Shown here: positions 3,486 to 35,103 of the stretch, piece after piece
Layout: each line of letters opens with the position of its first letter
Numbering within the stretch: position 1 is the stretch's first letter
From: Terriglobales bacterium
GTDB taxonomy: Bacteria; Acidobacteriota; Terriglobia; Terriglobales; Acidobacteriaceae
Length of the DNA: 64,000 nucleotides
Assembly: GCA_051984555.1 (NCBI GenBank)
Contig: JBPYEW010000225.1
Coordinates: 12,626-76,625 of the forward strand
Reading direction: 5' to 3'
Translations under genes and position numbers: made by a program
Notes under the pieces: generated by a model
The model's database searches: none
What the model saw: only the letters and a program-made list of their open reading frames with translations
What the model was told of the DNA's origin: nothing

Positions 3486-3575
3486 GGAGGGATGCGTGAG
3501 CGGTCGAAACGGGTGGTCTTGAAAACCACTGTACCCGGAAGGGTACCGGGGGTTCGAATCCCTCTCCCTCCGCCA
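3486..3575 (+). tRNA. tRNA-Ser (anticodon UGA), 90 nt, CCA encoded
   Basis: Manual cloverleaf. The acceptor stem is GGAGGGA/TCCCTCC with discriminator G and CCA. The anticodon stem is GTGGT/ACCAC with loop CTTGAAA. There is a long variable arm (GTACCC-GGAA-GGGTAC) and a T-loop GGTTCGAATCC. The GEGFEPP artefact appears in the antisense ORF 3469-3663. Confidence 0.9.
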
Positions 3576-4031: not shown

Positions 4032-4553
4032 CTATTCAGCCTTTACGATAGCGCCGCAGGCGACTCGATCACCCGCATTCCCCGCTGGATCGCTCTTCAT
4101 GTCATCCGGCTTCGCGTGAATGACCAGTGCGGTGCCGCCATTTGCGAACACCGAGTTTGCGCCCTTTCCTAAGCTGACACTCGGATTATCGACCGTCACG
4201 TGCGCTTTTCCCGTGTGCTGCACGAGGAAGTTATCCATGTCACCCGCGTGATGCCCGTCAGGGTTGTTGAGCCCGTGCTTCTTTCCTTCGGGATTGAAAT
4301 GCGGCCCCGCCGATTTGAAATCAGGTGGATCACACTTGGCGTTTTGATGGATATGTATTGCGTGTTCTCCCGGCTGGACACCTTGCAACTTGAGCTTGAT
4401 CCGGATGCCCTCGCCGTGTTGGGTGATAGTGGCGTTACCCACCTTGTTGCCTTCGGCATCTCGCAGCTCGACCCTTGCTTCGACGAACGCATTTGCCAGC
4501 AGCGTCCCGCCAATTAACATTCCGAGCAGAAGAAAGAAACGGAGATTTCCCAT
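4032..4553 (-). CDS. sodC: Periplasmic Cu/Zn superoxide dismutase
   Basis: Metal-ligand motifs HAIHIHQNAKCD, GPHFNP, GHHAGDMDNF and RVACGAI are present. I set the start at the internal ATG 4553 (MGNLRFFLLLGMLIGG signal peptide). The upstream part of ORF 4032-4805 overlaps cysH in another frame. Confidence 0.9.
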   Translation of the reverse strand: MGNLRFFLLLGMLIGGTLLANAFVEARVELRDAEGNKVGNATITQHGEGIRIKLKLQGVQPGEHAIHIHQNAKCDPPDFKSAGPHFNPEGKKHGLNNPDGHHAGDMDNFLVQHTGKAHVTVDNPSVSLGKGANSVFANGGTALVIHAKPDDMKSDPAGNAGDRVACGAIVKAE

Positions 4554-4612
4554 GCGCCAAATTATAGACGGAGCCTTCGCCGGCGCTGGCCGCTTTCTGT
4601 TCTTCTGGAAGA

Positions 4613-5326
4613 TCAGACTCTGTCCGCGGCTGCCGGGCTGATCACGTGCAGGCCGCACTCGGTTTTCGTGAATCCCGACCACCGCCCGGCTCTGGGATCC
4701 TCGCCCGGCCCGACGGCGCGCGTGCAATGCGTGCAACCAATACTCGGATAACTCTGGTCGTGTAGGGGATTGTAGAGAACCTTGTGCTGATGGATGTAGT
4801 TCCAAACCTGTTTATCGCTCCAGTCGGCCAGCGGATTGATTTTAATCAGGCCAAACTTTGCGTCCCAACTGATCTTGCGCGCACTCGCCCTCTGGGCTGT
4901 CTGATCCCGGCGAATACTGCTGATCCAGGCACGCAGGTGGCTCAATTTTCTCCGCAGCGGCTCGACTTTACGAATCTCGCAGCACTGGTCAGGATTTCGG
5001 GTCCACAACGCAGCTCCGTGAAGGCGCTCCTGTTCCTCCGGCGAGAGTAGCGGGCACATCCTTTCGATCTTGATCCCGTAGCGTTCTTCCACCTGATCGA
5101 TCAGGTTGTACGTCTCGGGAAAGAAAAACTCTGTATCAACCGTAAACACACGGAACTTGTGGGTGACTTTCGACGCGAGATCAATCGTCACCATGCCTTC
5201 AACCCCAAAGGCGGAAGAGATTGCCACATCATTCCCAAAGGTATGAAACGCCCAACGCAACACTTGATCGGCTGTCCACGATTCGGCTGCTGACTGCACT
5301 TCTTCCATTGACGTTTGAGGGCTCAC
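4613..5326 (-). CDS. cysH: Adenylyl-sulfate/phosphoadenylyl-sulfate reductase (thioredoxin-dependent, Fe-S type)
   Basis: PAPS-reductase fold with the CC...CxxC Fe-S ligands (QCCEIRKVEPL, GCTHCT) and the C-terminal catalytic ECGLH. Its start overlaps the stop of the upstream methyltransferase gene. Confidence 0.9.
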   Translation of the reverse strand: MSPQTSMEEVQSAAESWTADQVLRWAFHTFGNDVAISSAFGVEGMVTIDLASKVTHKFRVFTVDTEFFFPETYNLIDQVEERYGIKIERMCPLLSPEEQERLHGAALWTRNPDQCCEIRKVEPLRRKLSHLRAWISSIRRDQTAQRASARKISWDAKFGLIKINPLADWSDKQVWNYIHQHKVLYNPLHDQSYPSIGCTHCTRAVGPGEDPRAGRWSGFTKTECGLHVISPAAADRV

Positions 5327-6129
5327 GACACTATTTCCTCGTTCTCTTTCTGCTGATAAAGAAAGTCAGCGGGCATCGGATGGCGTTCGGCCACAGCGGC
5401 GTACTCTTGCAACTGATCGGCGCGCGCGAACCGGACCACCTCGCCAACCACCAGCAGTGTTGGTCCAGCGAGACGCGGTGCACGATGTAATTCGCCCACG
5501 GTTGTCGCGTAAATTTGCTGTCGTGGAGTCGTCGCTCGCGACACGATGGCGCACGTGGTTTCGTGCTTCGCACCTGCCGCTCGCAAGCGTGCAGCAACGG
5601 CCGCATATTGATGGCCGGGCATGTAGATCACCAGCGTCGCCCCACTCGTCATGAACTTTCGCCAATCTGTATCTTCGTTGTCGGGAGCACGATGACCGGT
5701 CAGCAGGATCACCGCTGGTGAAGCATCCCGGTGTGTCAGCGGGATCTCCGCGATCGCAGCTGCTCCAAAGGCCGAGGTCACGCCCGGTACGATCTCGTAT
5801 TCGATCTTCGCGGCACGCAGTGCTTCAATCTCTTCTGCTATCCGCCCAAAAATCAGCGGATCGCCACTCTTCAGGCGCACGACCTGTAGACCTGAAGCAG
5901 CAAGCCCGATCATGAGGAAGTTGATCTCCGGCTGCGTGATCTTCTTTTTGCCGCAAAGTTTGCCGACATTGTGAATTTGAGCGAAAGGCGAAACCAGTTT
6001 CAGAACTTCCGGTGAGACCAATTCGTCGTGAAGAACCGCCTCCGCATGTTTCAACAGGCGTGCCGCTTTGACCGTCAGCAGATCAGGGTCGCCTGGGCCG
6101 GCTCCCACAAGAAAAACTTTGCCGGTCAT
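5323..6129 (-). CDS. cobA: Uroporphyrinogen-III C-methyltransferase (siroheme branch)
   Basis: N-terminal FLVGAGPGDPDLLTVKA SAM-binding motif and tetrapyrrole methylase length. It overlaps both neighbouring genes by 4 nt. Confidence 0.9.
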   Translation of the reverse strand: MTGKVFLVGAGPGDPDLLTVKAARLLKHAEAVLHDELVSPEVLKLVSPFAQIHNVGKLCGKKKITQPEINFLMIGLAASGLQVVRLKSGDPLIFGRIAEEIEALRAAKIEYEIVPGVTSAFGAAAIAEIPLTHRDASPAVILLTGHRAPDNEDTDWRKFMTSGATLVIYMPGHQYAAVAARLRAAGAKHETTCAIVSRATTPRQQIYATTVGELHRAPRLAGPTLLVVGEVVRFARADQLQEYAAVAERHPMPADFLYQQKENEEIVS

Positions 6130-6743
6130 GCCGCCCCTCCCTGGTTCTCGGAAGATTGGCGTAAGAGTTCGGCCTCGAGCGCCGCGCGGCTAGCCAGCGA
6201 CTGCAACAAATTCCTTTTTCGTTCCTGGGGCAAATTCGACTTGAGTATCTCGCGCCGCGTTTCCCCCAACTCCGCCACCCACGTCTCGTACGCGGGACCA
6301 AACTGCTGCTCTAGTTGCTGCCGAATGCGCTGCGCCAGTGACGGACTCTGTCCCGAAGTCGAGATCGCGATTTGCAGGTCACCTCTCTTGACCACGGCCG
6401 GATAGTAAAAATCACACTGCGGGGGCACATCTACGACATTGCATAGAATTCGTCGCTCCTGCGCGTCCGCATACACTCGTTCGTTCAACTCGCGATCCGA
6501 CGTGGCGACGATGACCAGGAATGCGCGCTCGAGGTCTGCCGTTTCGTAACCACGCTCTTCCAGCTGAACCATTGCTGATTTCGCCCACTGCTTGACGAGA
6601 TCTGCCGCGTGTAGCGCAACAACCCGGACCTTCGCACCCGTTCCAAGGAGACCTGCAATCTTTTGCTCACCGATTTTGCCGGCCCCGACGACCAGTACCT
6701 CTCGCCCGTCGAGTTTCACGAATATTGGGAGCAGGCTTTTCAT
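6126..6743 (-). CDS. Precorrin-2 dehydrogenase / sirohydrochlorin ferrochelatase (CysG N-terminal domain type)
   Basis: Rossmann motif VLVVGAGKIGEQK. At 205 aa it has the typical SirC/Met8 size. It sits between the sulfite reductase and cobA genes. Confidence 0.85.
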   Translation of the reverse strand: MKSLLPIFVKLDGREVLVVGAGKIGEQKIAGLLGTGAKVRVVALHAADLVKQWAKSAMVQLEERGYETADLERAFLVIVATSDRELNERVYADAQERRILCNVVDVPPQCDFYYPAVVKRGDLQIAISTSGQSPSLAQRIRQQLEQQFGPAYETWVAELGETRREILKSNLPQERKRNLLQSLASRAALEAELLRQSSENQGGAA

Positions 6744-6746
6744 CGG

Positions 6747-8450
6747 TTATCCCTCCAGTCCGTGAGGCACGCGGCCAGGAGAAATATCTCGCGGAACTGC
6801 TTCCACCAGAGATCCGGCGAGAAATTCGCGAAGATTGTCGTTGTTATGCCGGCTGAAGAACTGCCGCAGGTTCTCGCCGTAGTGGCGGTCTTCCAGGTAC
6901 CGCCGCAGCAGCCGCTCGATGGCATCCGGAACTTCGCTGGCCGGGCATCGGTACCCAACCGGTCTGGCGAAACCCTGGTTCAGTCCGACTGCACCACCTA
7001 GGCAAAAGTAGTAAGCGTCCACCATCCGGCCATCGAGCTTGATCTTTTTTCCCTCGATGCCAATGTCAGCGATCCAGTGTTGCCCGCAACTGTTCGGGCA
7101 CCCCGTTACATGTAGCTTGAGGTCCTGGTCAAAACCCGGCATCCGTTCTTCGAGTTCTTCCACCAACCAGCGCGAAAAACTCTTGGTCTCGGTGATAGCA
7201 AGCTTGCAGAACTCCGCTCCACTGCATGCAATGGCTCCACGCCAGAATGGTGATCCGTCAGTTCGCAAACCAATGGCGTCGAGTTCCTTGGCCAATGCGT
7301 TCGCCTGTGTTCTCGGCACGTTGACGATCACCAGGTTTTGCATGGCGGTCGTCCGGAGTTGCCCGTCGGCAAAGCGGTCGGCAAGCTCTGCCGCAGCACG
7401 CATCTGTTCAGAATTGATTCGTCCGCGCAAGACTGCCGCGCCGACATAACTGAGGCCAGCCTGTTTCTGTGGATGGATTCCAACGTGATCCCGATAAACA
7501 TCGTCGGGCGCTTCTTCGGGAGCAGCCGGATCGAGGGTGAAACCAATACGTTCCTGCAACGAACTAAGAAAATTATCGGCGGTCCATCCGTGTCGCAGGA
7601 ACAAGAACTTCAACCTTGCGCGTTCCCGGTGCTCTCGCAGTTGTTCGGAATCGCGAAAGATCTCTGCAATCCCTTTCACTACCGGAAGCACTTGATCTGG
7701 CCGAACAAATGCATTCAACTGAGTGGCGAAGAATGGTTCGGCCGATAGGCCCCCGCCCACGCGCAGCGAGAATCCGGTTTCGCGCCGCCCGCCCACTTCA
7801 CGCGTGAGGGCAGTCAGGCCGATGTCGTTGATTTCCGGATAGGCACACCACACGCGGCAGCCGGTGATCGAAATTTTGAATTTGCGGGGAAGGTTGTAGA
7901 ACTCCGCATTCCCCATCAACGCTTGATTGATCCCCAACGCCAAGGGAGATGCGTCACAAATTTCTTCAGCATCGATTCCAGCAAGCGGGCAGCCTGTAAC
8001 GTTTCGAGTTACGTCGCCGCAAGCGCCAAGCGTGTTCAGACCCACTCGTCCCAGCGCTTCGAGAACTTCGGGGAGGGCTTCGATGCTGATCCAGTGCAGC
8101 TGGATATTCTGGCGAACTGTTAGGTCGCCAATATTGCGGGCATAGTTCTGAGTAAGATCGGCGATGGTTCGCAATTGGACCGAGTTCAACATCCCGTTCG
8201 GGACGCGGATGCGAACCATGAAGTAGGGCAGCGCTTTGCCTTCGCCCCCTTTGCCGCCGAGAACGCCGGCTCCGTCCCCCTGCGTGTAAACGCCCCACCA
8301 GCGGAAATAGGTGCCGATCCACTCCGGCGGAATAGCGGAGAAACCTTCGCGCGCGAAGCGTCGAATCTCACCCAAGCCTTCCCACGGATTCTTCTCGCGC
8401 TTGAGCCGCTCGACTCTTTGTGCTTTCGTCTCTTGGATTGTGTTTGCCAT
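6747..8450 (-). CDS. sir: Ferredoxin-dependent sulfite (nitrite/sulfite family) reductase hemoprotein
   Basis: 567 aa. The siroheme-[4Fe-4S] Cys cluster is present (ACSGAEFCKLA and TGCPNSCGQHWIADIG). The duplicated NIR_SIR ferredoxin-like halves are visible. Confidence 0.9.
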   Translation of the reverse strand: MANTIQETKAQRVERLKREKNPWEGLGEIRRFAREGFSAIPPEWIGTYFRWWGVYTQGDGAGVLGGKGGEGKALPYFMVRIRVPNGMLNSVQLRTIADLTQNYARNIGDLTVRQNIQLHWISIEALPEVLEALGRVGLNTLGACGDVTRNVTGCPLAGIDAEEICDASPLALGINQALMGNAEFYNLPRKFKISITGCRVWCAYPEINDIGLTALTREVGGRRETGFSLRVGGGLSAEPFFATQLNAFVRPDQVLPVVKGIAEIFRDSEQLREHRERARLKFLFLRHGWTADNFLSSLQERIGFTLDPAAPEEAPDDVYRDHVGIHPQKQAGLSYVGAAVLRGRINSEQMRAAAELADRFADGQLRTTAMQNLVIVNVPRTQANALAKELDAIGLRTDGSPFWRGAIACSGAEFCKLAITETKSFSRWLVEELEERMPGFDQDLKLHVTGCPNSCGQHWIADIGIEGKKIKLDGRMVDAYYFCLGGAVGLNQGFARPVGYRCPASEVPDAIERLLRRYLEDRHYGENLRQFFSRHNNDNLREFLAGSLVEAVPRDISPGRVPHGLEG

Positions 8451-8492
8451 AAAAATGAAAAACCCACCGCCAAATTGCTCTGGCGATGGGTT
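8451..8492 (-). terminator. Intrinsic terminator/attenuator hairpin immediately upstream of the sir start codon
   Basis: The minus-strand RNA reads AACCCAUCGCCA-GAGCAAUU-UGGCGGUGGGUU, a 12-bp stem with one G-U pair. It is followed by UUUUUCAUUUUU and then directly by the ATG at 8450. Confidence 0.7.
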
Positions 8493-8517
8493 TATGAGTG
8501 CTGAGATTACTAATTTA

Positions 8518-8613
8518 CTAAGTTAGCAGCCTCCCCGCGCCAGAACGCACGTATGCGCGACAACAACATGCGCACATACACATGGTCCGGCGAGTCTGGC
8601 TGCACAACGTCAT
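8518..8613 (-). CDS. Candidate Cys-rich leader peptide (31 codons) of the sulfur-assimilation operon
   Basis: Own translation gives ATG ACG TTG TGC ... TAG = MTLCSQTRRTMCMCACCCRAYVRSGAGRLLT. It has six Cys codons, five of them within seven codons. It lies between a promoter-like element and the attenuator hairpin. No clear Shine-Dalgarno is present, so it may be leaderless. Confidence 0.5.
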   Translation of the reverse strand: MTLCSQTRRTMCMCACCCRAYVRSGAGRLLT

Positions 8614-8622
8614 AGGCACATG

Positions 8623-8651
8623 ATCCTATAGGCCACAACAAATCTCGTCAA
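8623..8651 (-). promoter_or_regulatory. Sigma-70-like promoter candidate for the leader/sir operon
   Basis: On the minus strand, TTGACG (8646-8651), a 17-nt spacer and TAGGAT (8623-8628). The leader ATG lies 9 nt downstream of the -10 element. Confidence 0.35.
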
Positions 8652-8812: not shown

Positions 8813-9913
8813 CTAGGCGAGCGCCGGCAAGGGGCGGATCTGGATAAGCGGCCCATGCTTCTCGCCCTGTTCCCTGAGCAGCATATTCGCCGAGCGAATG
8901 CCAGTCCGCTGGAAAGACTTCTCGCAATCCGCCGTGGACGGACCGCGCATATTACCCTCCATGTAGGCGAGCCCTGGGCACCGCGTACATGTTCCGACAT
9001 GAGAGCAGGTCGAACACACTGGCAGGTCCTTGGCCCGAATCGATCGCACTTGCTCCAACTCAGGCGATCCTCGCCAGATGTCCAGAAACTTCTGGTGCCG
9101 CACATTTCCCGTCGGCAAAGGAAACTGAACGCAGGGAAATACGTCGCCATAAGGTGAGATGTAGCAGGCCGTATGCCCCGCACTGCACGGATATCCTTCC
9201 ATGATGTCCTCACCCGGCGGCGGAGGTGGTGCGCAAAATTCTTCTACATCGCCGACCAGGTCGGAATTCCTGAACACATTCTTCAGTTCCTCGCTCGGAG
9301 GCCTGAGTGCCAGGATGGATGTGTCACCATCAATCTTAGGCGTGATCGTGGGATCGAGCGTATAGTGCACACCTAATTCTTTCGCCAGTGCAATAACTCC
9401 CGCGCCGTCGCCCACATTCTCAGTCATCAGCACATTGGCCATCGTTACCTTGAGCCCCTGGGCTTTCAAGAAACGAATCGCTTCGACCGTATGCTTTAAC
9501 GATCCTGGCAGTTTGGTGATTCCATCATGCACTTCCGCTCGATGGGAATAAACACTGATCTGAATCTGTTCGACGCCCAGTTCGCGGATGCGCCGCGCTT
9601 CCGCTTCGCGAATCATCACCCCGTTGGTTTTGATCTTGACGTTGAACAGTAGTCGGCGCGCGTATGCGACGATCTCCAGGAAATCGCGACGCATGAAGAC
9701 TTCGCCGCCGCTTAGAACCAGGAAGAAAACCCCGGCCTCGGCCAACTGGTCAAGGACGTCCTTGATTTCCGCCGTGGTCATCTCCCCCAAATCATCATGA
9801 TCGAGATAGCAATGCACGCACCGCTCGTTACAGCGGTACGTCACGTCGACGTGAACACTGATCGGCACGCCTAACTCGAGCGCCCGGTAGTTCATCTGCG
9901 ACATCAGGTTCAT
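8813..9913 (-). CDS. Radical SAM / SPASM-domain peptide-modifying enzyme
   Basis: CX3CX2C motif in VDVTYRCNERCVHCY. The C-terminal region is Cys-rich and SPASM-like (CSAGHTACYISPYGDVFPC ... CSTCSHVGTCTRCPG ... DCEKS). It overlaps the upstream PqqD gene by 4 nt. Confidence 0.9.
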   Translation of the reverse strand: MNLMSQMNYRALELGVPISVHVDVTYRCNERCVHCYLDHDDLGEMTTAEIKDVLDQLAEAGVFFLVLSGGEVFMRRDFLEIVAYARRLLFNVKIKTNGVMIREAEARRIRELGVEQIQISVYSHRAEVHDGITKLPGSLKHTVEAIRFLKAQGLKVTMANVLMTENVGDGAGVIALAKELGVHYTLDPTITPKIDGDTSILALRPPSEELKNVFRNSDLVGDVEEFCAPPPPPGEDIMEGYPCSAGHTACYISPYGDVFPCVQFPLPTGNVRHQKFLDIWRGSPELEQVRSIRAKDLPVCSTCSHVGTCTRCPGLAYMEGNMRGPSTADCEKSFQRTGIRSANMLLREQGEKHGPLIQIRPLPALA

Positions 9914-10227
9914 TGCGCCCCCGGAGATGCGGCCGACGATTGTTCGATGGGAGTGTCGGAAACCAGCAGGATGCCATGCTGCGCCAAATCGTTCACGAAC
10001 TGCTCGGCATCCCGGCTGGCGTGTTCCTCGTCGATATCGAATCGCTCACAGATCTTCTGCGAAATGATGGTTGACAGGGGCGTGTGCCCATCCGCTGCTT
10101 GCCAGATTACGGTCGCCACTTCATTGAGCGTAAAGAACGTCGAGTCGGTTACCGACATTACCATCATCTCACCGCCCAGCATACGCGCGGCGATTTGCGT
10201 GCTCCTGGCTATGTATTTCTCTGTCAT
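9910..10227 (-). CDS. PqqD-family peptide chaperone (RiPP recognition element)
   Basis: The start is set at ATG 10227 (MTEKYIARS...), which forms an ATGA overlap with the kinase stop. The PqqD-like core is FFTLNEVATVIWQAADGHTPLSTIISQKICERFDID...FVNDLAQHGIL. Confidence 0.85.
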   Translation of the reverse strand: MTEKYIARSTQIAARMLGGEMMVMSVTDSTFFTLNEVATVIWQAADGHTPLSTIISQKICERFDIDEEHASRDAEQFVNDLAQHGILLVSDTPIEQSSAASPGAQ

Positions 10228-11045
10228 GACTGGCGAATCATCTCCCAAACCCGCTGATCCGGCACAAACGTCAAGCGCTTTACGGGAACGCTGGATACAA
10301 ATTCGCAAGCCGACTGGAACACCATCTTCACGAGTTCGGTGTCTTCCGCGAAGAACAAGATGTTTCGCAACAACAGCCGCGCTGCTTCTTTCACGTCAAT
10401 ATCCTCAACCCTGTTTGCCGGCCCTTTCGCCAGCAAAAACAGAGTCGAGACGGGTGCGGATTGGTTTTCCCCTGGCTTTGCCAGCTCCCCGGAAAACGGC
10501 GTTCCACATGCCCGATAACCGCCGCCCTCGCGGCGAACGTAAGACACCTCATCGGTCAGCAGAGTGACATCAGGCGGGGCTAATCTTGAGATCGTCGTTT
10601 TTCCCGCACCCGAAACTCCCGCGAACAGATACGCGCGTCCTCCACGTATCCCACTAGCCGCATGCAACAGAAAACCACCTTCTTCCGCCAGGATCAACGT
10701 ATGCACAATGCGCAACACCGAATCAATCGCGTACGGGCTGGCAGCTTGCCGTATTCGCCCCAGCGCCGACCTCGCGTCCCACTCCGCCTCAAAATCTCCG
10801 CGCTTCAAGTGCCAGTTTCCGTCGCGAACCTGCACGATCACATTCTCATCCGCGTCCTTGTCCTCCGAGGGCTCAAGGAGCTCGACATCGAACGCATACC
10901 GCGGCTGCTTGGAGTCGCCGATAAACCCGCTGTACCGGCTCTCGAGCATTCGCCGGAATCCTGAGTCCCCAGTGCGCAGTAATATTGGCATCCCGCCAAT
11001 ATCGATGGCCACTCCGGGTCTCTGATCGAGGCCGCTCATGCACAA
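10224..11045 (-). CDS. HPr-kinase-related serine kinase-like protein
   Basis: P-loop context LLHAASGIRGGRAYLFAGVSGAGKTTISRL...LLTDEVSYV resembles the HprK/P C-terminal catalytic domain. An alternative start lies at ATG 11039. It overlaps the end of the peptidase gene. Confidence 0.8.
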   Translation of the reverse strand: MCMSGLDQRPGVAIDIGGMPILLRTGDSGFRRMLESRYSGFIGDSKQPRYAFDVELLEPSEDKDADENVIVQVRDGNWHLKRGDFEAEWDARSALGRIRQAASPYAIDSVLRIVHTLILAEEGGFLLHAASGIRGGRAYLFAGVSGAGKTTISRLAPPDVTLLTDEVSYVRREGGGYRACGTPFSGELAKPGENQSAPVSTLFLLAKGPANRVEDIDVKEAARLLLRNILFFAEDTELVKMVFQSACEFVSSVPVKRLTFVPDQRVWEMIRQS

Positions 11046-11542
11046 TCTTCCTGCGCGGACAATGGATCGGGCTGAACTTCCCGAACCAGGGCGCGCCGCA
11101 ATCGCAATGCAATATTTACTGCAACAGCCGATCGACCTAGGAGCGCCCCTACGATACGATTCATCGGCGAACGCCGGCGCTCAGGCGTAATAGTTCGCCC
11201 TTTCCGCTCGATCAACGTCACTTTTCCAAGGAGTTCCGCTCCTGAAACGGGATCTGCGTGGGTCATCGAGTCTCCACGCGTGCTGAGTGGGTAAGAATTC
11301 CCATCCGCGATCAAAGTGAGTCGGTGAACCCGAAAGCCATCTTCGGCCAAGACCAGAACGATATCCCCGACGCAAATGTCCGCTGCCCGCTTGCTTTCGA
11401 TGCTGAGCACATCTCCCGGCCAAATGGTGGGAAGCATACTGGTCCCTTGCGCTTTCAACCGGATCCGGTTTCCGGAGCGCAGCACGTCGACCGCAAGAGT
11501 GAGCCTTGAGTTCTGGCGAGCCTCGATGGCGGTTACCATCAC
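11036..11542 (-). CDS. S24/S26-fold serine peptidase, signal-peptidase-like (Ser/His type), no N-terminal membrane anchor
   Basis: Ser box GTSMLPTIWPGDVL. VHRL sits where bacterial SPase I has the catalytic Lys (K-R-V/I). TRGDSMTHAD box present. The start is GTG 11542 or ATG 11539. The N-terminus is hydrophilic. Confidence 0.75.
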   Translation of the reverse strand: MMVTAIEARQNSRLTLAVDVLRSGNRIRLKAQGTSMLPTIWPGDVLSIESKRAADICVGDIVLVLAEDGFRVHRLTLIADGNSYPLSTRGDSMTHADPVSGAELLGKVTLIERKGRTITPERRRSPMNRIVGALLGRSAVAVNIALRLRRALVREVQPDPLSAQEDCA

Positions 11543-11549
11543 GCGTGGA

Positions 11550-11726
11550 TTATGAGAACTTCCGGTTGAACCGACATCCTTGCACGGTCGGGTGGATCTT
11601 GCCGCAAGCGAGCGCCATGGTTTCGAAGACCTTTTCGTGCTTGAACTCCGGCTTTTTGTACGGCCGCTTGGGCGTACCCTTCTGGTCAGCGATATTTTCG
11701 CTGGCTTTCTGGTTTTTTTCTCTCAT
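11550..11726 (-). CDS. Candidate RiPP precursor peptide (58 aa)
   Basis: The internal ATG 11726 of ORF 11550-11909 gives MREKNQKASENIADQKGTPKRPYKKPEFKHEKVFETMALACGKIHPTVQGCRFNRKFS. It is the first gene of the operon, and its stop lies 7 nt before the peptidase start. It has a charged leader, a YxxPxF motif, an AxA motif, two Cys and a C-terminal Ser. Confidence 0.6.
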   Translation of the reverse strand: MREKNQKASENIADQKGTPKRPYKKPEFKHEKVFETMALACGKIHPTVQGCRFNRKFS

Positions 11727-11907
11727 ATCTGTCCACACGCCCCCGCCGGGCTGGGCGACGATAAGGTGATGAGGTGCGTTGCCGCTAAGTGTATAACAAC
11801 TATAAAGTTTTGATAAGCAGTAATGTTCCGTCGGATGCACTCGAAGTACACCTTGGATGCCCACTCGCTCATCCCAATCTGTTAACGCGTTCAACCCCGA
11901 ATTCCGC

Positions 11908-12993
11908 ATGCTGCTTGCGTGCTGTCAACATACGTGTCGACGCCCGGAAATCGAACGCCTTGTGGATACCGTCGACTCAACCGTCCTTCTGGAACTTGCC
12001 GAAAAGCACGGGATAATCCCGCAGCTTCACCTCGGCCTCGCCGACTATTCAGCTCGCATTCCTGCCTGGGCGGACTTGCACAGTCTTTTTGAGAAAAATG
12101 CCCGGCGAGCACTTTGGCTTACCCAACTCTTGGAAAAAATCCTGGGTCTGCTGCATTCCCGTGAAATCGACGCTCTGCCCTACAAGGGTCCGGCCCTGGC
12201 ACAAGTCCTGTATGGTGACATCTCCATGCGTCAATACATGGACCTCGATATCCTGGTTCGCACCGCTTGCCTGCCCGCGGCCAACGACGCTTTACGGGAG
12301 ATCGGCCTCTCTCGCCACCTCCAGCTAAATCCGGCCGAAGAACAGGCTTTCGTCGATTCTCACTACGAATACGCTTTCGATGGATTCGGCGCACCCAACA
12401 TCGTCGAACTCCAGTGGCAAATTCTGCCGCGGTTCTACGCGATCGATCTAGAGGTCGAACCACTTTTCGACCGGGCTGTCACCGTTCCGCTCGGCGGGTC
12501 TCATGTGCGCTCTTTGTGCAACGAAGACCTCTTCCTGGTTTTGTGCATTCACGCTGCCAAGCATCTATGGGGACGGCTTTCCTGGATCCTGGACATCGCA
12601 CGACTAGCGGAAAGCGGTTCGATCGATTGGGACACGATCGACAAACGAGTTAAGAGCTTGGGTATAAGCAGGATTGTGGCAGTCTCGTGCGCCCTCGCCC
12701 GTTCGCTATTCGGGACCGAATATCCCGGTTCCACGAGCTTCGCGGTAGATGAAGATGTTGTCCGGTCGATCCTGCAGAGATTGCCGGCCGGCGAGCAACC
12801 CGACACAGAGTCCCCTGGTTATTTCCGTGAGATATTTCGCCTACGCGAGCGACGATCCGACCGCATTCGTTTCGTATTTCGCCTTGTGACCACTCCGAGT
12901 ATCAGCGAATGGAGCGTGGTTCGCCTCCCGCCATCGCTGTTTCCTCTCTATCGGGTCGTGCGGCTATTTCGACTGCTCGGCAAAATCGTCTAA
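11908..12993 (+). CDS. Uncharacterised nucleotidyltransferase family protein (PF14907-like)
   Basis: ORF 11857-12993. I prefer ATG 11908 because it avoids overlap with the divergent precursor region. The N-terminus (LLACC....E...L......W..LL.LA..HG..P.L) and the approximately 360-aa size are typical of this family. It is transcribed divergently from the RiPP operon. Confidence 0.7.
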   Translation: MLLACCQHTCRRPEIERLVDTVDSTVLLELAEKHGIIPQLHLGLADYSARIPAWADLHSLFEKNARRALWLTQLLEKILGLLHSREIDALPYKGPALAQVLYGDISMRQYMDLDILVRTACLPAANDALREIGLSRHLQLNPAEEQAFVDSHYEYAFDGFGAPNIVELQWQILPRFYAIDLEVEPLFDRAVTVPLGGSHVRSLCNEDLFLVLCIHAAKHLWGRLSWILDIARLAESGSIDWDTIDKRVKSLGISRIVAVSCALARSLFGTEYPGSTSFAVDEDVVRSILQRLPAGEQPDTESPGYFREIFRLRERRSDRIRFVFRLVTTPSISEWSVVRLPPSLFPLYRVVRLFRLLGKIV

Positions 12994-23578: not shown

Positions 23579-24250
23579 TTATCCATGTTTATGAGCGATC
23601 AGGTAGAGCAGCGGGTAGAGGTAGATCCAGACGATATCTACGAAGTGCCAATACAAGCCCGTGATCTCTACCGGGTTGTAGTACGCAGAGGTGTATCTGC
23701 CCCGCCACGCCTGAAATGCAATGACCGACACAAGCCCGACACCAATGATCATATGAAGGGCGTGGAAGCCGGTCATCGCCCAATAGAACGAAAAGAAGAG
23801 CGAGACGCCCTGTGGATCGGGACCTGAGTAGTCCCAGTGTAAGCCTGGAAACTCTGCTCTCTGCCAATGCAGGTAGTACTCCTCGGCTTTGATTCCCAGG
23901 AACGCCAACCCGAACAAAATGGTTACGATCAGGAACAACACGATTAGCTTGCGCTGTCCCAGCTGGGCGGCACGCACAGCCAGCACCATAGTCAAACTGC
24001 TGCACAGGAGCACGATGGTATTGACAGTGCCGTACCAGAAGTCCATGTGCTGGCTGCCTTCTACCCACGCGCCATAGTGCAGAAAGCGATAAATCATGTA
24101 CCCCGCGAACATCCCTCCGAAGAACATGATCTCGGTAATCAGAAACACCCACATTCCCATCACCGAGGCATCGGTTTGCTGCTCCATCGATGAAAAATGA
24201 TGTTGCAGGTCCGGGTTGTGAGTGGCGATCGCCGGGGTGCTATCGCTCAA
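23579..24250 (-). CDS. ctaE: Cytochrome c oxidase subunit III
   Basis: LQHHF...EQQ...[15 protein letters not shown] and [10 protein letters not shown] motifs. I prefer TTG 24250, which lies 6 nt after AAGGAGG inside the 3' end of ctaD. The ORF track gives an alternative ATG at 24271. Confidence 0.85.
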
Positions 24251-25877
24251 CGGGGACCTCCTTCGGTTCATCGATCTGATCGTAGTTATAGGCTTCCCAC
24301 GTTACGGTTGGGGTCTCGTCGAAATTGAAAGTGGGTGGAGGGGATGTTGTCATCCACTCCAATCCAGCCGCGTGCCAGGGATTCGCTTCCGCGACCTTGC
24401 CATACCGCATGGACCACAGCAGGTAGATCATGGGGAGGATATATCCCACCGCAAGGATGGTAGCGCCCGCGGTTGATAAAACGTTGAGTACTTGGAACTC
24501 CGGCGAATACTGCCAATAACGCCGAGGCATCCCGATAATCCCTAGAATGAACTGAGGGAAGAAGGTGAGGTTGAAGCCTATGAAAATGATCAGCGCCGCA
24601 AGTCGTCCCCAGCTTTCCGGATACATTCGGCCGGAAATCTTGGGCCACCAGAAGTGAATACCTGCCAGGTATGCGATCACCATTCCGCCCACCATGATGT
24701 AGTGGAAGTGGGCGATTACAAAGTAGGTATCGGTCACGTGCACGTCGATCCCGAGCGCGGCCACGAACAAGCCGGTTAACCCGCCCATCGTGAAGAGGCC
24801 GATGAACCCCAAGGCATAGAGCATGGGCGTGTCGTAAGAGATCGAACCCTTGTACATCGTCGACGTCCAGTTGAACACCTTGATAGCCGACGGCACCGCC
24901 ACGAAATAGCTAAGCAGCGAGAACACCATCGCCGCATACAGCGACACACCGGCGACAAACATATGGTGAGCCCAGACGAGGAACCCGAGCACTGCGATCG
25001 CGATCACCGCCAAAGCCATGAACTTGTAGCCGAAAATTCTTTTCCGCGAGAAGCAAGTAACAATCTCACTGACCACGCCCATGCCCGGCAGGATCATGAT
25101 GTAGACAGCGGGATGCGAGTAGAACCAGAACAGGTGCTGGAAAAGCAGCGGGTCGCCGCCCATTTGCGGGTTGAAAATGCCGAGATGGAAGATTCGCTCG
25201 AGAGCGACCAGCATTAGGGTGATCGCAAGCACCGGGGTTCCGAGCACCTGGATGATAGACGTCGCGTAGTTAGACCACACAAACAAGGGCAGTCGCGACC
25301 ACGTCATTCCTGGTGCCCGCATCCGATGTATTGTGACAATAAAATTCAGTCCGGTAAGGATCGAGGAGAACCCTGCGATGAAGATTGCCAGCGCCGCGGA
25401 TATGACATGAGTGTCCAGGAATTGCGTGCTTAGCGGGGTATAGAACGTCCAACCCGTGTCCACGCCGCCGGTCAAGATGGTGTACATCATGAGCACGCCG
25501 CCGGCGATGAACAAATACCAGCTCAGCAGGTTCACCCGTGGAAAAGCCAAGTCTTTGGCGCCGATCATGATCGGTACCAGAAAATTGCCCAAGACAGCGG
25601 GCACGGCAGGAATCAGGAAGAAGAAGACCATCACCTGGCCGTGCATGGTGAATAGCTTGTTATAGGTATCCGCCTGCACCAGATCACCCGCAGGTGTAAG
25701 GAGTTCCAGTCGGATTAGAAGCGCGAAGAAACCTCCGATAAAGAAGAAAAACGTGATCGACAGCAAGTACAGCAGCGCAATGCGCTTGTGGTCGGTGGTT
25801 AGCAGCCACGACGTGATGCCGTACTCTTTGTTCAGGTAATTCTCGCGTTCCGGAACCGGAACTGTTGCAGTAGCCAT
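24240..25877 (-). CDS. ctaD: Cytochrome c oxidase subunit I
   Basis: 545 aa. Heme/CuB ligand contexts WAHHMFVAG and [10 protein letters not shown] are present, and the protein has 12 or more hydrophobic helices. Confidence 0.95.
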
Positions 25878-30674: not shown

Positions 30675-32050
30675 TCGGCCTTCACCTCCTTGGCCTCAGG
30701 AAGAAGCGTGCGCATCTCGAAGATCGAGATCATCGGCAGAATACGAATGAACAGGAAGAAGGCTGCCAGGAAGAATCCAAGCGTCCCGATAAACGTCATC
30801 CAGTCCCATCGGGTCGGGTAGTACATGCCCCAGGAAGAGTTCAGGAAGTCGCGATGCAAACTGACCACGACGATGACGAATCGCTCCAGCCACATCCCCA
30901 CCAAAACGACCGTTGCAACCACAAAGACAAGGATAGGCCGGGTCCGCCATTTCCTGATCCAGAGCAACTGCGGGAAGATAATGTTGCAGAACAACAGCAT
31001 GTAGTAAAAGAACGCATACGGCCCATGCAGCCGATTCCAAAGCAGGTAATTATCGTATCGATTGCCTCCATACCAATTCATGAAGGCTTCCATGGCGTAG
31101 CCGTAAGCGACGATGAGTCCCGTGGCGAGCATCACCTTCGACGAATTCTCGATATGGCGCAGCGTGATGAAATCTTCCAACCCATACAGTTTTCGAATCG
31201 GAATAGCCAGCATGAGCACCATGGCGAATCCGGAGTAGATAGCCCCCGCGACGAAGTACGGCGGGAAGATAGTCGTATGCCAGCCCGGAACAATTGCAAC
31301 CGCAAAATCGAAACTAACTACGGTGTGGACTGACAGCACGAGTGGAGTCGCCAGCCCGGCCAACAGCAGGTACGACATCTCGTAACGCTTCCAGTGTCGC
31401 GCTGATCCGCGCCAGCCCATGGCCAGCATTCCGTAGATCATCGCAGCCCACTTGTTTTCCGCTCGATCGCGCAGCGTGGCCAAGTCAGGTATCAGTCCGA
31501 TGAACCAGAACACCAGAGAAATCGTGAAGTAAGTGGAAACCGCGAATACGTCCCACACGAGCGGGCTTCGGAACTGCGGCCAGTAATTCATGCTGTTCGG
31601 ATACGGGAACAGCCAATACGCCAACCATGGGCGGCCCAGGTGCAACACTGGAAACAGGCCTGCGCAGGAAACCGCGAAAAGCGTCATAGCCTCAGCGAAG
31701 CGATTGATTGAGTTACGCCACTCTTGCCGCAGCAACAAGAGAATTGCCGAAATCAACGTGCCGGCGTGTCCGATTCCGATCCACCAAACGAAGTTGACGA
31801 TCGCAAATCCCCAGCCGACGGGGATGTTGACGCCCCAGATGCCGACACCGCGAACGAACAGGTATCCAATGGCGAACAAGAGCATCTGCGTGATCAAAAA
31901 TGCTATGCCGAACCCGAGTATCCAACCATTGGATACAGGCCGCGTCAGCACGATCGAGCTGATCTTGTCGGTAATGGTAGAGAAAGTGTGGCCCGGAGCA
32001 ATGACCGGCGCCTTTCTCCGCCCGACCGTTACTGGTGTTTGCTCGTCCAT
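30671..32050 (-). CDS. actC: Alternative complex III quinol-interacting NrfD/PsrC-like membrane subunit
   Basis: 459 aa and polytopic. The start forms a TAATG overlap with the actB stop. Confidence 0.8.
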   Translation of the reverse strand: MDEQTPVTVGRRKAPVIAPGHTFSTITDKISSIVLTRPVSNGWILGFGIAFLITQMLLFAIGYLFVRGVGIWGVNIPVGWGFAIVNFVWWIGIGHAGTLISAILLLLRQEWRNSINRFAEAMTLFAVSCAGLFPVLHLGRPWLAYWLFPYPNSMNYWPQFRSPLVWDVFAVSTYFTISLVFWFIGLIPDLATLRDRAENKWAAMIYGMLAMGWRGSARHWKRYEMSYLLLAGLATPLVLSVHTVVSFDFAVAIVPGWHTTIFPPYFVAGAIYSGFAMVLMLAIPIRKLYGLEDFITLRHIENSSKVMLATGLIVAYGYAMEAFMNWYGGNRYDNYLLWNRLHGPYAFFYYMLLFCNIIFPQLLWIRKWRTRPILVFVVATVVLVGMWLERFVIVVVSLHRDFLNSSWGMYYPTRWDWMTFIGTLGFFLAAFFLFIRILPMISIFEMRTLLPEAKEVKAE

Positions 32051-35000
32051 TAGCTGCGCTCGCCTTCGAGTTCAGGGTTAGGGTTTCGCACTGCGGCAAG
32101 GTAGGTTGTACGCGGCCTGGTATTGAGATCCTCGAGAAGTCCGTAGTTTCGGGGTCCCGCTTTCAACTTAGCCACCTTGCTGTTCGGATCGTTGATGTTG
32201 CCGAAGAGGATGGCGTTCGCCGGGCAAGACTGCTGGCACGCAGTCTGCAACTCGCCGTCCTGGATCCTCACCTCCCGATTTTCGCGAACCGAAGCTGTCT
32301 CGGCATCGATTCGGTGTTGCGTGATGCGTTGCACGCAGTAGGTGCACTTCTCCATGACACCGCGACTGCGCACGGTCACATCGGGATTACGCATCATTTT
32401 GAATTGCGGCGTCTCCCAGTCCTGGAATCGCAGGAAATTAAACCGCCGTACCTTGTAAGGACAGTTGTTTGAACAATAGCGCGTACCCACGCAGCGGTTG
32501 TAGACCATGTCGTTCAAACCTTCCGTGCTGTGCACGGTCGCTCCGACCGGACAAACCACTTCGCAAGGTGCGTTCTCACAGTGCATACAGGGAACCGGCT
32601 GAAAATAGGCATCGGGGGTGTTGCGATCCCCCTGGTAGTACGTATCAACCCGCAGCCAGTGCATGTGACGGCCAAGATTCGTCTGTTCCTTGCCGACGAC
32701 TGCAATGTTGTTCTCCGATTGGCAAGCAACAATACAGTTGTTGCACCCCACGCAGGCGTTCAAGTCGATCGCCATACCCCACGCGTAAGGTTCTTTGCTG
32801 TAGTCAAAACCGGGAACCGTCGGATAGAGCGACAACTCGGGCTTTTGCAACTCTTCTTGAGCGAAGTCGGGCTTGCCCTTGTATTCCGGCAGCGGCGCAT
32901 GACGGACCAGCGGCCGGGCACCAACGGCTGTCTCCATGGTCTGATACCCTTGGGTACTCGCCAGCTCATAAAAGCCGCTTACTGCTCGAACATTTATGCC
33001 CGTCGCAAACCAAGGAATCGCGCTGTTTCGCAGCTGATACGCATCGAAACCAAAACCGGTTCCAGTTCGTCCCGCGCGCGTTCGTCCATAGCCTAAGTAA
33101 ACACTGACGGAATTATCGGGATGACCAGCCTGAACCCAGACTGCCATCGGCATCTTCTTGCCCTGGACCTCGATCTCAACCATGTCCTTGCTCTGGACTT
33201 TGAGCCGATCTGCCATTGCGGGTCCCATAAGCACCGGGTTGTCCCATGTCAGCTTGCTCAGAGGCTTTGGCAATTCCTGAAGCCAGGCATTGTTCGAGAA
33301 TCGTCCGTCGTAAATGGAAGGATCGCGACGGAAATTGATTTCAGTTCCGTTCACATCCTGGGTGCTGGCGGGAAAACTTGTAGCTTTGATTGTGACCTGG
33401 CGCTGCGGCAGGCCCGAACCGTCTACGAATCCGTCATTGAGCGACTTCCGCCAAAACGCTTCAAAATCTGCTCCGGCGTGCTGCTGTTGCCAGTAGCCTC
33501 GCACAATTTCGTAAGCGGTTGCGTCCCCCTGTCCAGCAAGCAAAGCCATGAACTCGTGCACGCTCTTGCCCGAATAAAGCGGCGCTATCAACGGTTGCAC
33601 GATGCTGACGGTTCCGTCGTAGGCGCGCGTATCGCTCCACCCCTCAAGGTAGTGGGCTTCGTTAACATTCCATTGACACAATTCGGCGGTTTCGTTCGCG
33701 TGCTGCCCAAGGTACACACGCATCGGCGCGCCGCTATTCTTGAGAGCATCTGCGAAACCCAGATCGGCGGGAGCGTCATATGCGGGATTGCCGCCCAGGA
33801 TCAGCAGCATGTCGACTTTACTTGCCCGCATGTCACTCACTAACTCCCGAATTCCGCTGGTCTGGTCGTCTGTGTTGACGAGAACAGGGTCCGTGTAGAC
33901 AACCGTTTTCCCAATGTTCCCTAGCGCGGCGTTGATTGCGTGCCCCAGTGCATGGACAACCGGCGACTGCTGTTCGCCGACGATCACCACGCTTGATCCG
34001 CGATGAGACTGCAGCTCCTTGGCTATCGCGCTTGAGAACTTGTTCTGATCGCCGGACAAAGAACCTGCGCCGGCATTTACCCCGAGAGCAGAAGCCAAGG
34101 CCCGCGCAAACTGCTCGATGTCAACTGCGCGAAGAGGTAAACGATGGTCGGCTTTGAAGCCAGTCGAGGTGGGAGTGCTCTCCACCACGTACATGCGACT
34201 CATGTTGCCGTCGGGATTTCTTCGTGACGCATAATCGCGCGCATACCGGGTGAATCCCGGAAATCCGGCGTAGAGGAAGTCCGCATCCAGAGAGACAATC
34301 ACATCTGCGGCATCGAGCTTGTACTGCGCATCCACCGCTTGACCAAAAGCCATACGCGATCCCGCGTAGAAATTGTCTCGGTTAACCGGCTCGTACACGA
34401 TCCACCGCGCCGCGGGAAATGTCTTGAGGAACTGGTCCATTTGAGCAGCCAGCGTCGGCGAAGAGCTAGCTTGACTCAGAACACGGATACCCTCACCCTG
34501 CAGTCCTTTTTGAATATTCAAAGGCCCGCGAAATGCATTTAAGAAAGCTCCCCACGAGTACGGATCGCCCAAATAGGTCGTGGTTTGTAATCGATCAGGG
34601 TCGTAGAGATCCAGCAATGACGCCTGGGAGTAAACGTCGGTTCCGCCCATGCTGACTGGATGCTTATCGTTGCCTTCGATCTTCGTCGGACGCCCCATGT
34701 GGCTCGTAACCAGGAGCGGAGTCGCATAGCCGCCCAGGGTAAAAGCAGTGGCGTAAGTCAAGGGACGACCCGGAACAATTTCTTCCGGCTGGCGAACGTA
34801 CGGAACAATAGGCTCGGGCGGTTGCTTCGTACAGCCGGTCATGCCAGCGAGGGCAAGCGAAGCACCCATTAGCTTGAGGAAGCCGCGGCGTGATACGGCG
34901 TCCAACCACTCCGATGCACCCTTCGGAAACTCGCGGTGCATCATCTCCTGAAACCCCGGGCTGCCCGCCAGTTCTTCCAGGCTGCGCCAGTATTCGGGTC

Positions 35001-35103
35001 CCTTGGCTTCGGCCAGCTTGGCGCGAACTGAATCCAACTCAAGCCTGTCCTTCTTGCCCGGACAAACTTCCTCGTGTCGCTCGTGTTTGTCTTGTTCTTG
35101 CAT
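32050..35103 (-). CDS. actB: Alternative complex III ActB (molybdopterin-oxidoreductase-like domain fused to a 4Fe-4S ferredoxin domain)
   Basis: 1017 aa. It has the Tat signal SRRGFLKLMGASLALAG and C-terminal Fe-S motifs CVGCNNCIVAC, CMHCENAPCEVVCP and CTYCVQR. Confidence 0.9.
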   Translation of the reverse strand: MQEQDKHERHEEVCPGKKDRLELDSVRAKLAEAKGPEYWRSLEELAGSPGFQEMMHREFPKGASEWLDAVSRRGFLKLMGASLALAGMTGCTKQPPEPIVPYVRQPEEIVPGRPLTYATAFTLGGYATPLLVTSHMGRPTKIEGNDKHPVSMGGTDVYSQASLLDLYDPDRLQTTTYLGDPYSWGAFLNAFRGPLNIQKGLQGEGIRVLSQASSSPTLAAQMDQFLKTFPAARWIVYEPVNRDNFYAGSRMAFGQAVDAQYKLDAADVIVSLDADFLYAGFPGFTRYARDYASRRNPDGNMSRMYVVESTPTSTGFKADHRLPLRAVDIEQFARALASALGVNAGAGSLSGDQNKFSSAIAKELQSHRGSSVVIVGEQQSPVVHALGHAINAALGNIGKTVVYTDPVLVNTDDQTSGIRELVSDMRASKVDMLLILGGNPAYDAPADLGFADALKNSGAPMRVYLGQHANETAELCQWNVNEAHYLEGWSDTRAYDGTVSIVQPLIAPLYSGKSVHEFMALLAGQGDATAYEIVRGYWQQQHAGADFEAFWRKSLNDGFVDGSGLPQRQVTIKATSFPASTQDVNGTEINFRRDPSIYDGRFSNNAWLQELPKPLSKLTWDNPVLMGPAMADRLKVQSKDMVEIEVQGKKMPMAVWVQAGHPDNSVSVYLGYGRTRAGRTGTGFGFDAYQLRNSAIPWFATGINVRAVSGFYELASTQGYQTMETAVGARPLVRHAPLPEYKGKPDFAQEELQKPELSLYPTVPGFDYSKEPYAWGMAIDLNACVGCNNCIVACQSENNIAVVGKEQTNLGRHMHWLRVDTYYQGDRNTPDAYFQPVPCMHCENAPCEVVCPVGATVHSTEGLNDMVYNRCVGTRYCSNNCPYKVRRFNFLRFQDWETPQFKMMRNPDVTVRSRGVMEKCTYCVQRITQHRIDAETASVRENREVRIQDGELQTACQQSCPANAILFGNINDPNSKVAKLKAGPRNYGLLEDLNTRPRTTYLAAVRNPNPELEGERS

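Follow-up and report, generated by a model that had tools for sequence, protein, structure and literature searches.

Upstream of sir, a sulfite reductase gene on the minus strand of a 64,000-nucleotide (nt) stretch of a Terriglobales bacterium contig (hereafter the window), lies a short leader composed of a cysteine (Cys)-rich upstream open reading frame (uORF), an intrinsic terminator and an antiterminator that shares one arm with the terminator. To judge from sequence comparison, this leader is probably a ribosome-mediated, trp-type transcription attenuator that reads charged tRNA-Cys and controls sir-sirC-cobA-cysH (coordinates in Table 1). All parts of such a device are present, they are conserved among relatives, they pair in two alternative ways, and they lie in a defined geometry relative to the reading frame. 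The downstream genes, which are sir, sirC, cobA and cysH as the initial annotation of this DNA had it, are those of reductive sulfate assimilation feeding cysteine synthesis, and the cargo therefore matches the Cys signal.

The uORF of the window contains six Cys codons (4, 12, 14, 16, 17, and 18), five of them within seven codons and three (16-18) consecutive, and no other stop-to-stop frame in any of the six frames of the window reaches five Cys in seven codons. Relatives were collected by a scan for Sir that kept one genome per species; more than 590 were found, and our comparisons use the best 80 (72-80% identical), all of them Terriglobales/Acidobacteriaceae/'Ca. Sulfotelmatobacter' metagenome-assembled genomes. 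An equivalent uORF is present at 80/80 loci, with 26-31 codons and 5-10 Cys codons (median 8), up to six of which are consecutive. The family consensus over these loci is M-x4-NLR-x2-C-x-C-x-CCCC-A-C-V-C-SGAGRLLT*, and both Cys codons are used (TGT 371 times, TGC 242 times, across relatives). Between ATG and stop, the Cys frame stays open in 74/74 loci, compared with 5 for the Val frame and 53 for the Leu frame, and changes in the length of the Cys run preserve the frame in the leader alignment. Two loci stand in bins of other phyla, L018 in a Verrucomicrobiia bin and L047 in a 'Candidatus Eisenbacteria' bin; each has a typical Terriglobales sir (74-75% identical) with the same Cys leader, and these contigs are probably mis-binned acidobacterial DNA.

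The small ORF has escaped annotation. A protein database search with a leader profile whose first row was extended N-terminally returned only 14 matches. In each of them this leader had been called from a spurious start farther upstream, and all are either unnamed or labeled 'hypothetical'. Two of these were checked for context, and both showed the order leader-sir-sirC-cobA, with cysH next in the one locus that was long enough. A scan for Cys-rich frames found no second Cys leader in the window or the related loci. The frames that it did raise in the window, at 25774 (minus strand) and 33476 (plus strand), each with 4 Cys in 6 codons, were rejected because they fall within long ORFs or on the strand opposite them (24240-25877 and 32050-35103). 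Extra Cys-rich frames also occur in five related loci, and the one inspected (L044) falls within a long ORF.

The start of the uORF is tied closely to a promoter. In the window, a TTGACG element is separated by 17 nt from TAGGAT, and 9 nt lie between TAGGAT and the uORF ATG (8613). Among relatives, TTGAC[AGC] is placed 16-18 nt 5' of a TAGAAT-like -10 element in 69/74, and the gap between -10 and ATG is 9-10 nt at 58/74 loci. We also located the promoter without reference to reading frame, in 77 loci, as an independent test of the start codon. With this placement, the 9-10 nt gap holds at 52/77 loci, and the first ATG 3' of the promoter opens the Cys frame in 76/77, where 1 in 3 is expected. 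The spacing implies a 5' untranslated region of ~0-4 nt; the uORF has no Shine-Dalgarno sequence, and there is no room for one between the -10 element and the ATG. Because of this spacing and the absent Shine-Dalgarno, we infer that the transcript begins at or within ~4 nt of the AUG and that the uORF is leaderless or nearly so. The initial annotation had read the same promoter, the same 31-codon ORF with six Cys codons and a leaderless or near-leaderless start from the window by itself; the promoter and ORF are where it placed them, and the promoter-ATG spacing and the absence of a Shine-Dalgarno prove to be conserved in relatives. A three-codon mini-ORF (ATG TGC CTA TGA, 8610-8621, minus strand) overlaps the uORF start as ATGA. 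It probably lies outside the transcript because its start falls only 1 nt after the -10 hexamer.

We then considered the RNA that this promoter would produce, naming the pairing segments regions 1 to 4 in the order of transcription. Pairing, folding, and identity figures are based on an alignment of 72 leaders (A1), folded with ViennaRNA, with z-scores taken against dinucleotide shuffles and the consensus fold from RNAalifold. Regions 3 and 4 form the terminator, which in the window spans 8493-8460 with 15 pairs, 7 of them G-C, and a 4-nt loop by terminator scan. All aligned leaders have this terminator, with five pairs showing changes on both sides (RNAalifold), and the 12 nt past the hairpin contain 7-11 U in all 80 loci with a located hairpin end. 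Region 2 (GUUCUGGCGCGGGG) can pair with CCCAUCGCCAGAGC, part of the terminator 5' arm, through 9 base pairs (bp) and then 3 more past a 2x2 internal loop; written out, the 2:3 pairing is UCUGGCG with CGCCAGA plus GGG with CCC. These pairs are standard in 93% of alignment cells, as against 28-52% if the partner is slid by 1-3 columns. Upstream, the arms GUAUGUGCG (8579-8571) and CGCGCAUAC (8559-8551) enclose the poly-Cys codons in a hairpin that would form the inner part of a predicted 1:2 stem. Regions 2, 3, and 4 have pairwise identities of 0.83, 0.90, and 0.97, respectively, while the loops stand at 0.46 and 0.30 (the latter being the terminator loop) and third codon positions of sir at 0.48. 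The arms are thus under strong selection, with the loops drifting approximately neutrally.

A further conserved part caps the antiterminator. The last sense codons of the uORF (cUG CUG Acc, alignment columns 105-110) pair with UCAGCA past the stop codon (columns 135-140), and in folding this stop-codon hairpin nests within 2:3; its register in the window is ambiguous owing to a GCUGCU repeat. One of its pairs forms a compensatory series, being U-A in 31 sequences, U-G in 27, and C-G in 11. The C changes a Leu codon to Pro and is always opposite a G. The hairpin thus shows that the conserved C-terminal 'peptide' is kept as RNA. In 77/80 loci, the spacing between the beginning of region 2 and the stop codon of the uORF is a constant 23 nt.

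Most of these RNA parts had been read correctly from the single sequence. The 9-bp hairpin around the Cys codons (8551-8579, minus strand) and the pairing of codons 23-27 with the terminator 5' arm through 9 bp plus GGG:CCC both stood. The downstream stem was rightly taken for a terminator with a U-tract followed by the sir ATG; only its extent needed correction, as the proposed 12-bp core at 8461-8492 is one base off at each end. The stop-codon hairpin is an addition to that description. Comparison with relatives, which the initial annotation had offered as a check, found the Cys run, the antiterminator arm, and the terminator kept in all relatives examined.

The conserved C-terminus SGAGRLLT could also be taken to mean that the Cys-rich peptide is itself the product. 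Directly upstream of the leader, on the same strand (8813-11909, minus), the window carries a SynChlorMet-like cassette for maturation of a ribosomally synthesised and post-translationally modified peptide (RiPP), with genes for a radical-SAM/SPASM maturase, a PqqD-like protein, and a ScmC-like protein, and radical-SAM/SPASM maturases act on Cys-rich peptides. The uORF would then encode either a precursor for this cassette or a small peptide, metal- or redox-active, that is made together with sulfite reductase. We regard such a product as extremely improbable. First, a radical-SAM cassette stands beside sir in 1/80 loci (L024), whereas the uORF is found in 80/80 and sirC, cobA, and cysH in 79, 77, and 75; hence the uORF belongs to sir and not to the cassette, and its use as the RiPP precursor of the radical-SAM/SPASM-PqqD cassette is ruled out. 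Second, the promoter sits between the cassette and the uORF, and the cassette has a candidate precursor ORF of its own at 11550-11909. Third, the conserved C-terminal codons are RNA arms, in which the Leu-to-Pro change follows the pairing partner, and variation across codon positions carries no sign of selection on the peptide.

To see how a ribosome might alter the outcome, we folded the leaders with and without a footprint. The 175-nt leader of the window has a folding energy of -70.4 kcal/mol (z = -4.0); taken with its unique Cys-rich frame and its recurrence at 80/80 loci, this exceeds what is expected by chance. In the ribosome-free, full-length minimum free energy (MFE) structure, region 2 is paired upstream and the terminator is formed in 72/72 leaders. 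With a footprint on the poly-Cys core, region 2 is left free in 72/72 on geometry only, and if the RNA extends just to region 3, the 2:3 antiterminator, capped by the stop-codon hairpin nested in it, has the lowest free energy, again in 72/72. The antiterminator has a mean energy of -25.7 kcal/mol (window -27.0). Once region 4 is included, the terminator is preferred thermodynamically, at a mean of -40.1 (window -33.5). By segment, the mean z-score is -3.5 for the antiterminator (90% below -2) and -7.3 for the terminator. Constrained folding, also put forward in the initial annotation, therefore yields the mutually exclusive terminator and antiterminator states that it had claimed, set by ribosome position.

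We suggest the following scheme, in which translation of the uORF, ribosome stalling, the transcription start, the efficiency of termination, and the response to cysteine are predictions from the sequence. Transcription would start at or within a few nt of the uORF AUG. When Cys-tRNA is scarce, the first ribosome would stall in the Cys run, where it would cover or separate region 1 and leave region 2 free. Region 2 would pair with region 3 once the latter has been transcribed, stacked under the stop-codon hairpin, and this 2:3 helix would block the 3:4 terminator, letting RNA polymerase continue into sir. With Cys-tRNA in good supply, the ribosome would reach the stop codon. Because the stop lies 23 nt past the start of region 2, a terminating ribosome would melt the stop-codon hairpin and occupy part of region 2; alternatively, the ribosome would leave and 1:2 would re-form. 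Either way, 3:4 would form, and the 15-bp hairpin with its U-tract would terminate transcription to give a leader RNA of ~160 nt.

Several observations weigh against this attenuator model or qualify it. First, the terminator is ~14 kcal/mol more stable than the antiterminator, and the choice between them must therefore be kinetic. Second, the stability of the 1:2 segment does not clearly exceed that of shuffles (mean z -1.6, window -0.25). The attenuator reading of the initial annotation is backed by every computational test that it named, with weak statistical support for the 1:2 pairing. Third, only 1/10 pairs of 2:3 changes on both sides, mostly in one clade; true covariation there is sparse because the antiterminator arms are nearly invariant. 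Fourth, the last Cys codon abuts region 2 in most relatives, and a ribosome stalled at that codon would cover region 2. Fifth, variation is much the same at codon positions 1, 2, and 3 (0.59, 0.59, and 0.66), and so there is no signature of purifying selection on a peptide; because RNA constraints dominate, codon-position entropy is uninformative on translation. The case that the uORF may be translated is argued solely from conservation of its frame, start, and stop. Sixth, the Leu (UUG) frame is likewise open in 53/74 loci. Lastly, sir itself lacks a Shine-Dalgarno sequence, and its read-through transcripts would need another way to recruit ribosomes, possibly U-rich, S1-dependent loading.

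Other observations concern the same segments. A second frame over the leader of the window runs from a TTG start for 43 amino acids (aa; 8510-8641, minus strand), and relatives read the TGT repeats in it as UUG Leu; their Leu frame has no conserved start. Region 1 differs by clade: a CGCGC type goes with GCGCGGGG, the CG variant of region 2, in 17/19, and a CGCCAG type goes with GCGCAGGG, the CA variant, in 9/19, with the reverse pattern never seen in the other clade. This association follows clades, and the sequences compared lack independence. Applied to the full alignment, RNAalifold recovered just the terminator and two short helices because the register of region 1 differs among clades. 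In a divergent clade, L021 (5843-6003) and L081 (1427-1765), region 2 is GGCAUGGGG and region 3 is CCCAUCGCUGG, and A-U and U-A pairs close the internal loop of the antiterminator. As judged by eye, this is a lineage-specific double change that fits 2:3.

The weak 1:2 helix, the conservation at the nucleotide level without excess variation at third positions, and the recurrence of UGY triplets at 3- or 6-nt spacing would all suit a different sensor, in which a protein or ligand bound to the RNA (TRAP-like on the UGY repeats, or as a riboswitch) chooses between terminator and antiterminator and the ORF is untranslated. We consider this highly improbable. Such an RNA sits badly with an ATG held 9-10 nt from the -10 element and opening the Cys frame in 76/77 loci, with a Cys frame open in 74/74 with a fixed stop position, and with changes in Cys-run length that preserve the frame. 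Moreover, no Rfam family matches, and a leader peptide is just what would be expected to place Cys codons before genes of the cysteine pathway.

If the uORF is the sensor, the regulated step could still differ. The 3:4 hairpin might mainly block loading of the 30S subunit on sir, with 2:3 freeing region 4 and the U-rich tract, perhaps alongside termination. In the window, the sir ATG stands immediately 3' of the U-tract without a Shine-Dalgarno sequence, and the hairpin ends within 15 nt of the ATG in 22/79 loci and within 40 nt in 64/79. The only experimentally dissected Cys uORF, the mycobacterial Ms5788A, acts on translation. We nevertheless judge translation unlikely to be the main step. 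The ATG is more than 40 nt from the hairpin in 15/79 loci, and the hairpin, 12-15 bp long and G+C-rich, has the makeup of a canonical intrinsic terminator, with its U-rich stretch conserved at the 80 loci. Occlusion alone needs no conserved U-tract, and its conservation thus favors termination as the conserved output. Termination and translational control of sir may both operate. A bolder scheme, possible though on the doubtful side, is a two-level leaderless-uORF switch in which 2:3 versus 3:4 would set both termination and ribosome loading on the sir AUG, which in 22/79 loci stands only 6-11 nt past the hairpin. It might also be one of several poly-Cys leaders (a 'Cys ribulon') that arose independently in Acidobacteriota.

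Table 1. Features of the leader, the sir operon and the adjacent cassette in the window
Feature	Position	Strand	Basis
-35 element TTGACG	8646-8651	-	read from sequence and promoter scan
-10 element TAGGAT (family consensus TAGAAT)	8623-8628	-	read from sequence and promoter scan
uORF, 31 codons and TAG, MTLCSQTRRTMCMCACCCRAYVRSGAGRLLT	8518-8613	-	read from sequence
Proposed regulatory Cys codons 12, 14, 16, 17, 18	8560-8580	-	further Cys codon 4 at 8602-8604
Region 1 (CUCGCCGGA), pairs with region 2 in ribosome-free RNA, putative anti-antiterminator	8586-8594	-	predicted fold
9-bp hairpin around the poly-Cys codons, inner part of the putative 1:2 stem	8551-8579	-	sequence and folds
Region 2, codons 23-27 (SGAG), antiterminator 5' arm	8533-8546	-	complementary to 8477-8490
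Stop-codon hairpin, top of antiterminator	8496-8532	-	folding
Region 3, terminator 5' arm, common to antiterminator	8479-8493	-	folds and terminator scan
Region 4, terminator 3' arm	8460-8474	-	folds and terminator scan
U-tract UUUUUCAUUUUU, sir ATG (8450) directly after	8451-8462	-	read from sequence
sir, ferredoxin-type sulfite reductase (NirA family), 567 aa, proposed first regulated gene	6747-8450	-	sequence
sirC / cysG N-terminal domain, precorrin-2 dehydrogenase / sirohydrochlorin ferrochelatase	6126-6743	-	79/80 loci
cobA, uroporphyrinogen-III C-methyltransferase	5323-6129	-	77/80 loci
cysH, (phospho)adenylyl-sulfate reductase	4613-5326	-	75/80 loci
Radical-SAM/SPASM maturase	8813-9913	-	cassette
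PqqD-like chaperone	9910-10308	-	cassette
ScmC-like protein	10224-11045	-	cassette
Signal-peptidase-like protein	11036-11542	-	cassette
Small ORF, candidate cassette precursor, C-terminal part ...ETMALACGKIHPTVQGCRFNRKFS	11550-11909	-	sequence

Beyond cysH, the window has an ORF for a SodC-like Cu/Zn superoxide dismutase (4032-4805, minus strand) that is found at 0/80 related loci. Its true start probably lies further downstream because the TTG start overlaps cysH by ~190 nt.

The leader belongs to an established class. Ribosome-mediated attenuation of trp, his, and other operons is well documented (summarised in 10.1101/834739). Like trpL, hisL, leuL, thrL, ilvL, and pheL, the leader described here has a short ORF enriched in codons for the end product, and like the enterobacterial attenuators it has 2:3 and 3:4 alternatives, along with a putative 1:2 pairing, and 3:4 is an intrinsic terminator just before the first structural gene. 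The terminator exceeds the antiterminator in stability in both systems, as expected for kinetic control by ribosome position. There are also clear differences. Our leader would sense cysteine, for which the enterobacterial set has no attenuator, and its host is acidobacterial. Enterobacterial leaders are led by a Shine-Dalgarno sequence, whereas this uORF is apparently leaderless or nearly so, and its stop codon lies downstream of region 2, inside the extra hairpin that caps the antiterminator. Sequence similarity to the enterobacterial leaders is absent, as is any match to their Rfam families.

Closer in the amino acid sensed are the mycobacterial polycysteine leaderless short ORFs (sORFs), which respond to cysteine and of which Ms5788A hides the downstream Shine-Dalgarno sequence within a duplex (Canestrari et al. 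2020, 10.1101/834739). In 2020, the same authors wrote that uORF-mediated attenuation for cysteine had not previously been described (10.1101/834739). Our uORF resembles Ms5788A and Rv2334A, members of the 'Cys ribulon', in being an unannotated short ORF, probably at the 5' end of its transcript, with consecutive Cys codons, before cysteine or sulfur operons, and the proposed sensor is again ribosome stalling on Cys codons. It differs in output: Ms5788A has a very stable duplex on the Shine-Dalgarno sequence and no terminator, whereas the Terriglobales leader has a canonical terminator and antiterminator and no Shine-Dalgarno sequence. The two also come from different phyla and are evidently of independent origin, and the Cys run here is internal rather than C-terminal. 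The mycobacterial precedent invoked in the initial annotation therefore holds as a functional analogue and not as a mechanistic one, given that it acts on translation by sequestering the ribosome-binding site.

Two predicted systems are also relevant. The uORFC-8-2 motif before cysS in Rhodobacterales, which carries two tandem Cys codons, has been predicted to be a ribosome-mediated attenuator (Brewer et al. 2021, PMC8632094). As in our leader, its AUG is conserved, its Cys codons lie within a stem, and its terminator has a U-run (PMC8632094). It differs in having only the two tandem Cys codons, in controlling a tRNA synthetase gene instead of a biosynthetic operon, and in its alphaproteobacterial host; no antiterminator geometry has been described for it, and the sequence and structure are unrelated. 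Cys leader peptides have further been predicted before actinobacterial cys/cbs operons, without a conserved terminator, with the mode of action left open and Rho suggested (Seliverstov et al. 2005, PMC1262725). These too are short ORFs with Cys runs before cysteine genes that were found by comparative genomics (PMC1262725). Unlike them, the present family has the terminator and the antiterminator as its best-conserved parts.

A search of Rfam assigned the leader to no leader or cis-regulatory family; permissive thresholds gave two hits at chance level (E = 0.33 and 0.92), far below gathering scores. The sole gathering-level Rfam match in the window is a tRNA-Ser(UGA) at 3486-3575 (plus strand). 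The element is also not described in the literature that we searched, which included Acidobacteria together with leader peptides, attenuation, cysteine, or sulfite reductase. The mechanism is therefore of a known class, and a Cys-sensing, terminator-based, probably leaderless leader of sir is absent from Rfam, from named proteins, and from the searched literature. It would join a polycysteine sensor of the mycobacterial kind to a terminator switch like that of trpL or hisL, and by sequence and structure it falls within no described family.

To our knowledge, Acidobacteriota have essentially no characterised cis-regulatory RNAs. The Terriglobales are abundant soil bacteria with almost no known regulatory mechanisms (PMC2965389). 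The leader lends itself to direct testing, being short, sharply delimited, and strongly conserved. It serves as a marker for annotating an unannotated small ORF, and it is a naturally occurring case of intrinsic termination coupled to a uORF that is probably leaderless. Cysteine has long been missing among leader-peptide attenuators, the mycobacterial case being one that acts on translation. If our reading is true, the Terriglobales would possess a full trp-style terminator/antiterminator device that senses Cys-tRNA and stands over their genes for sulfate assimilation and siroheme.

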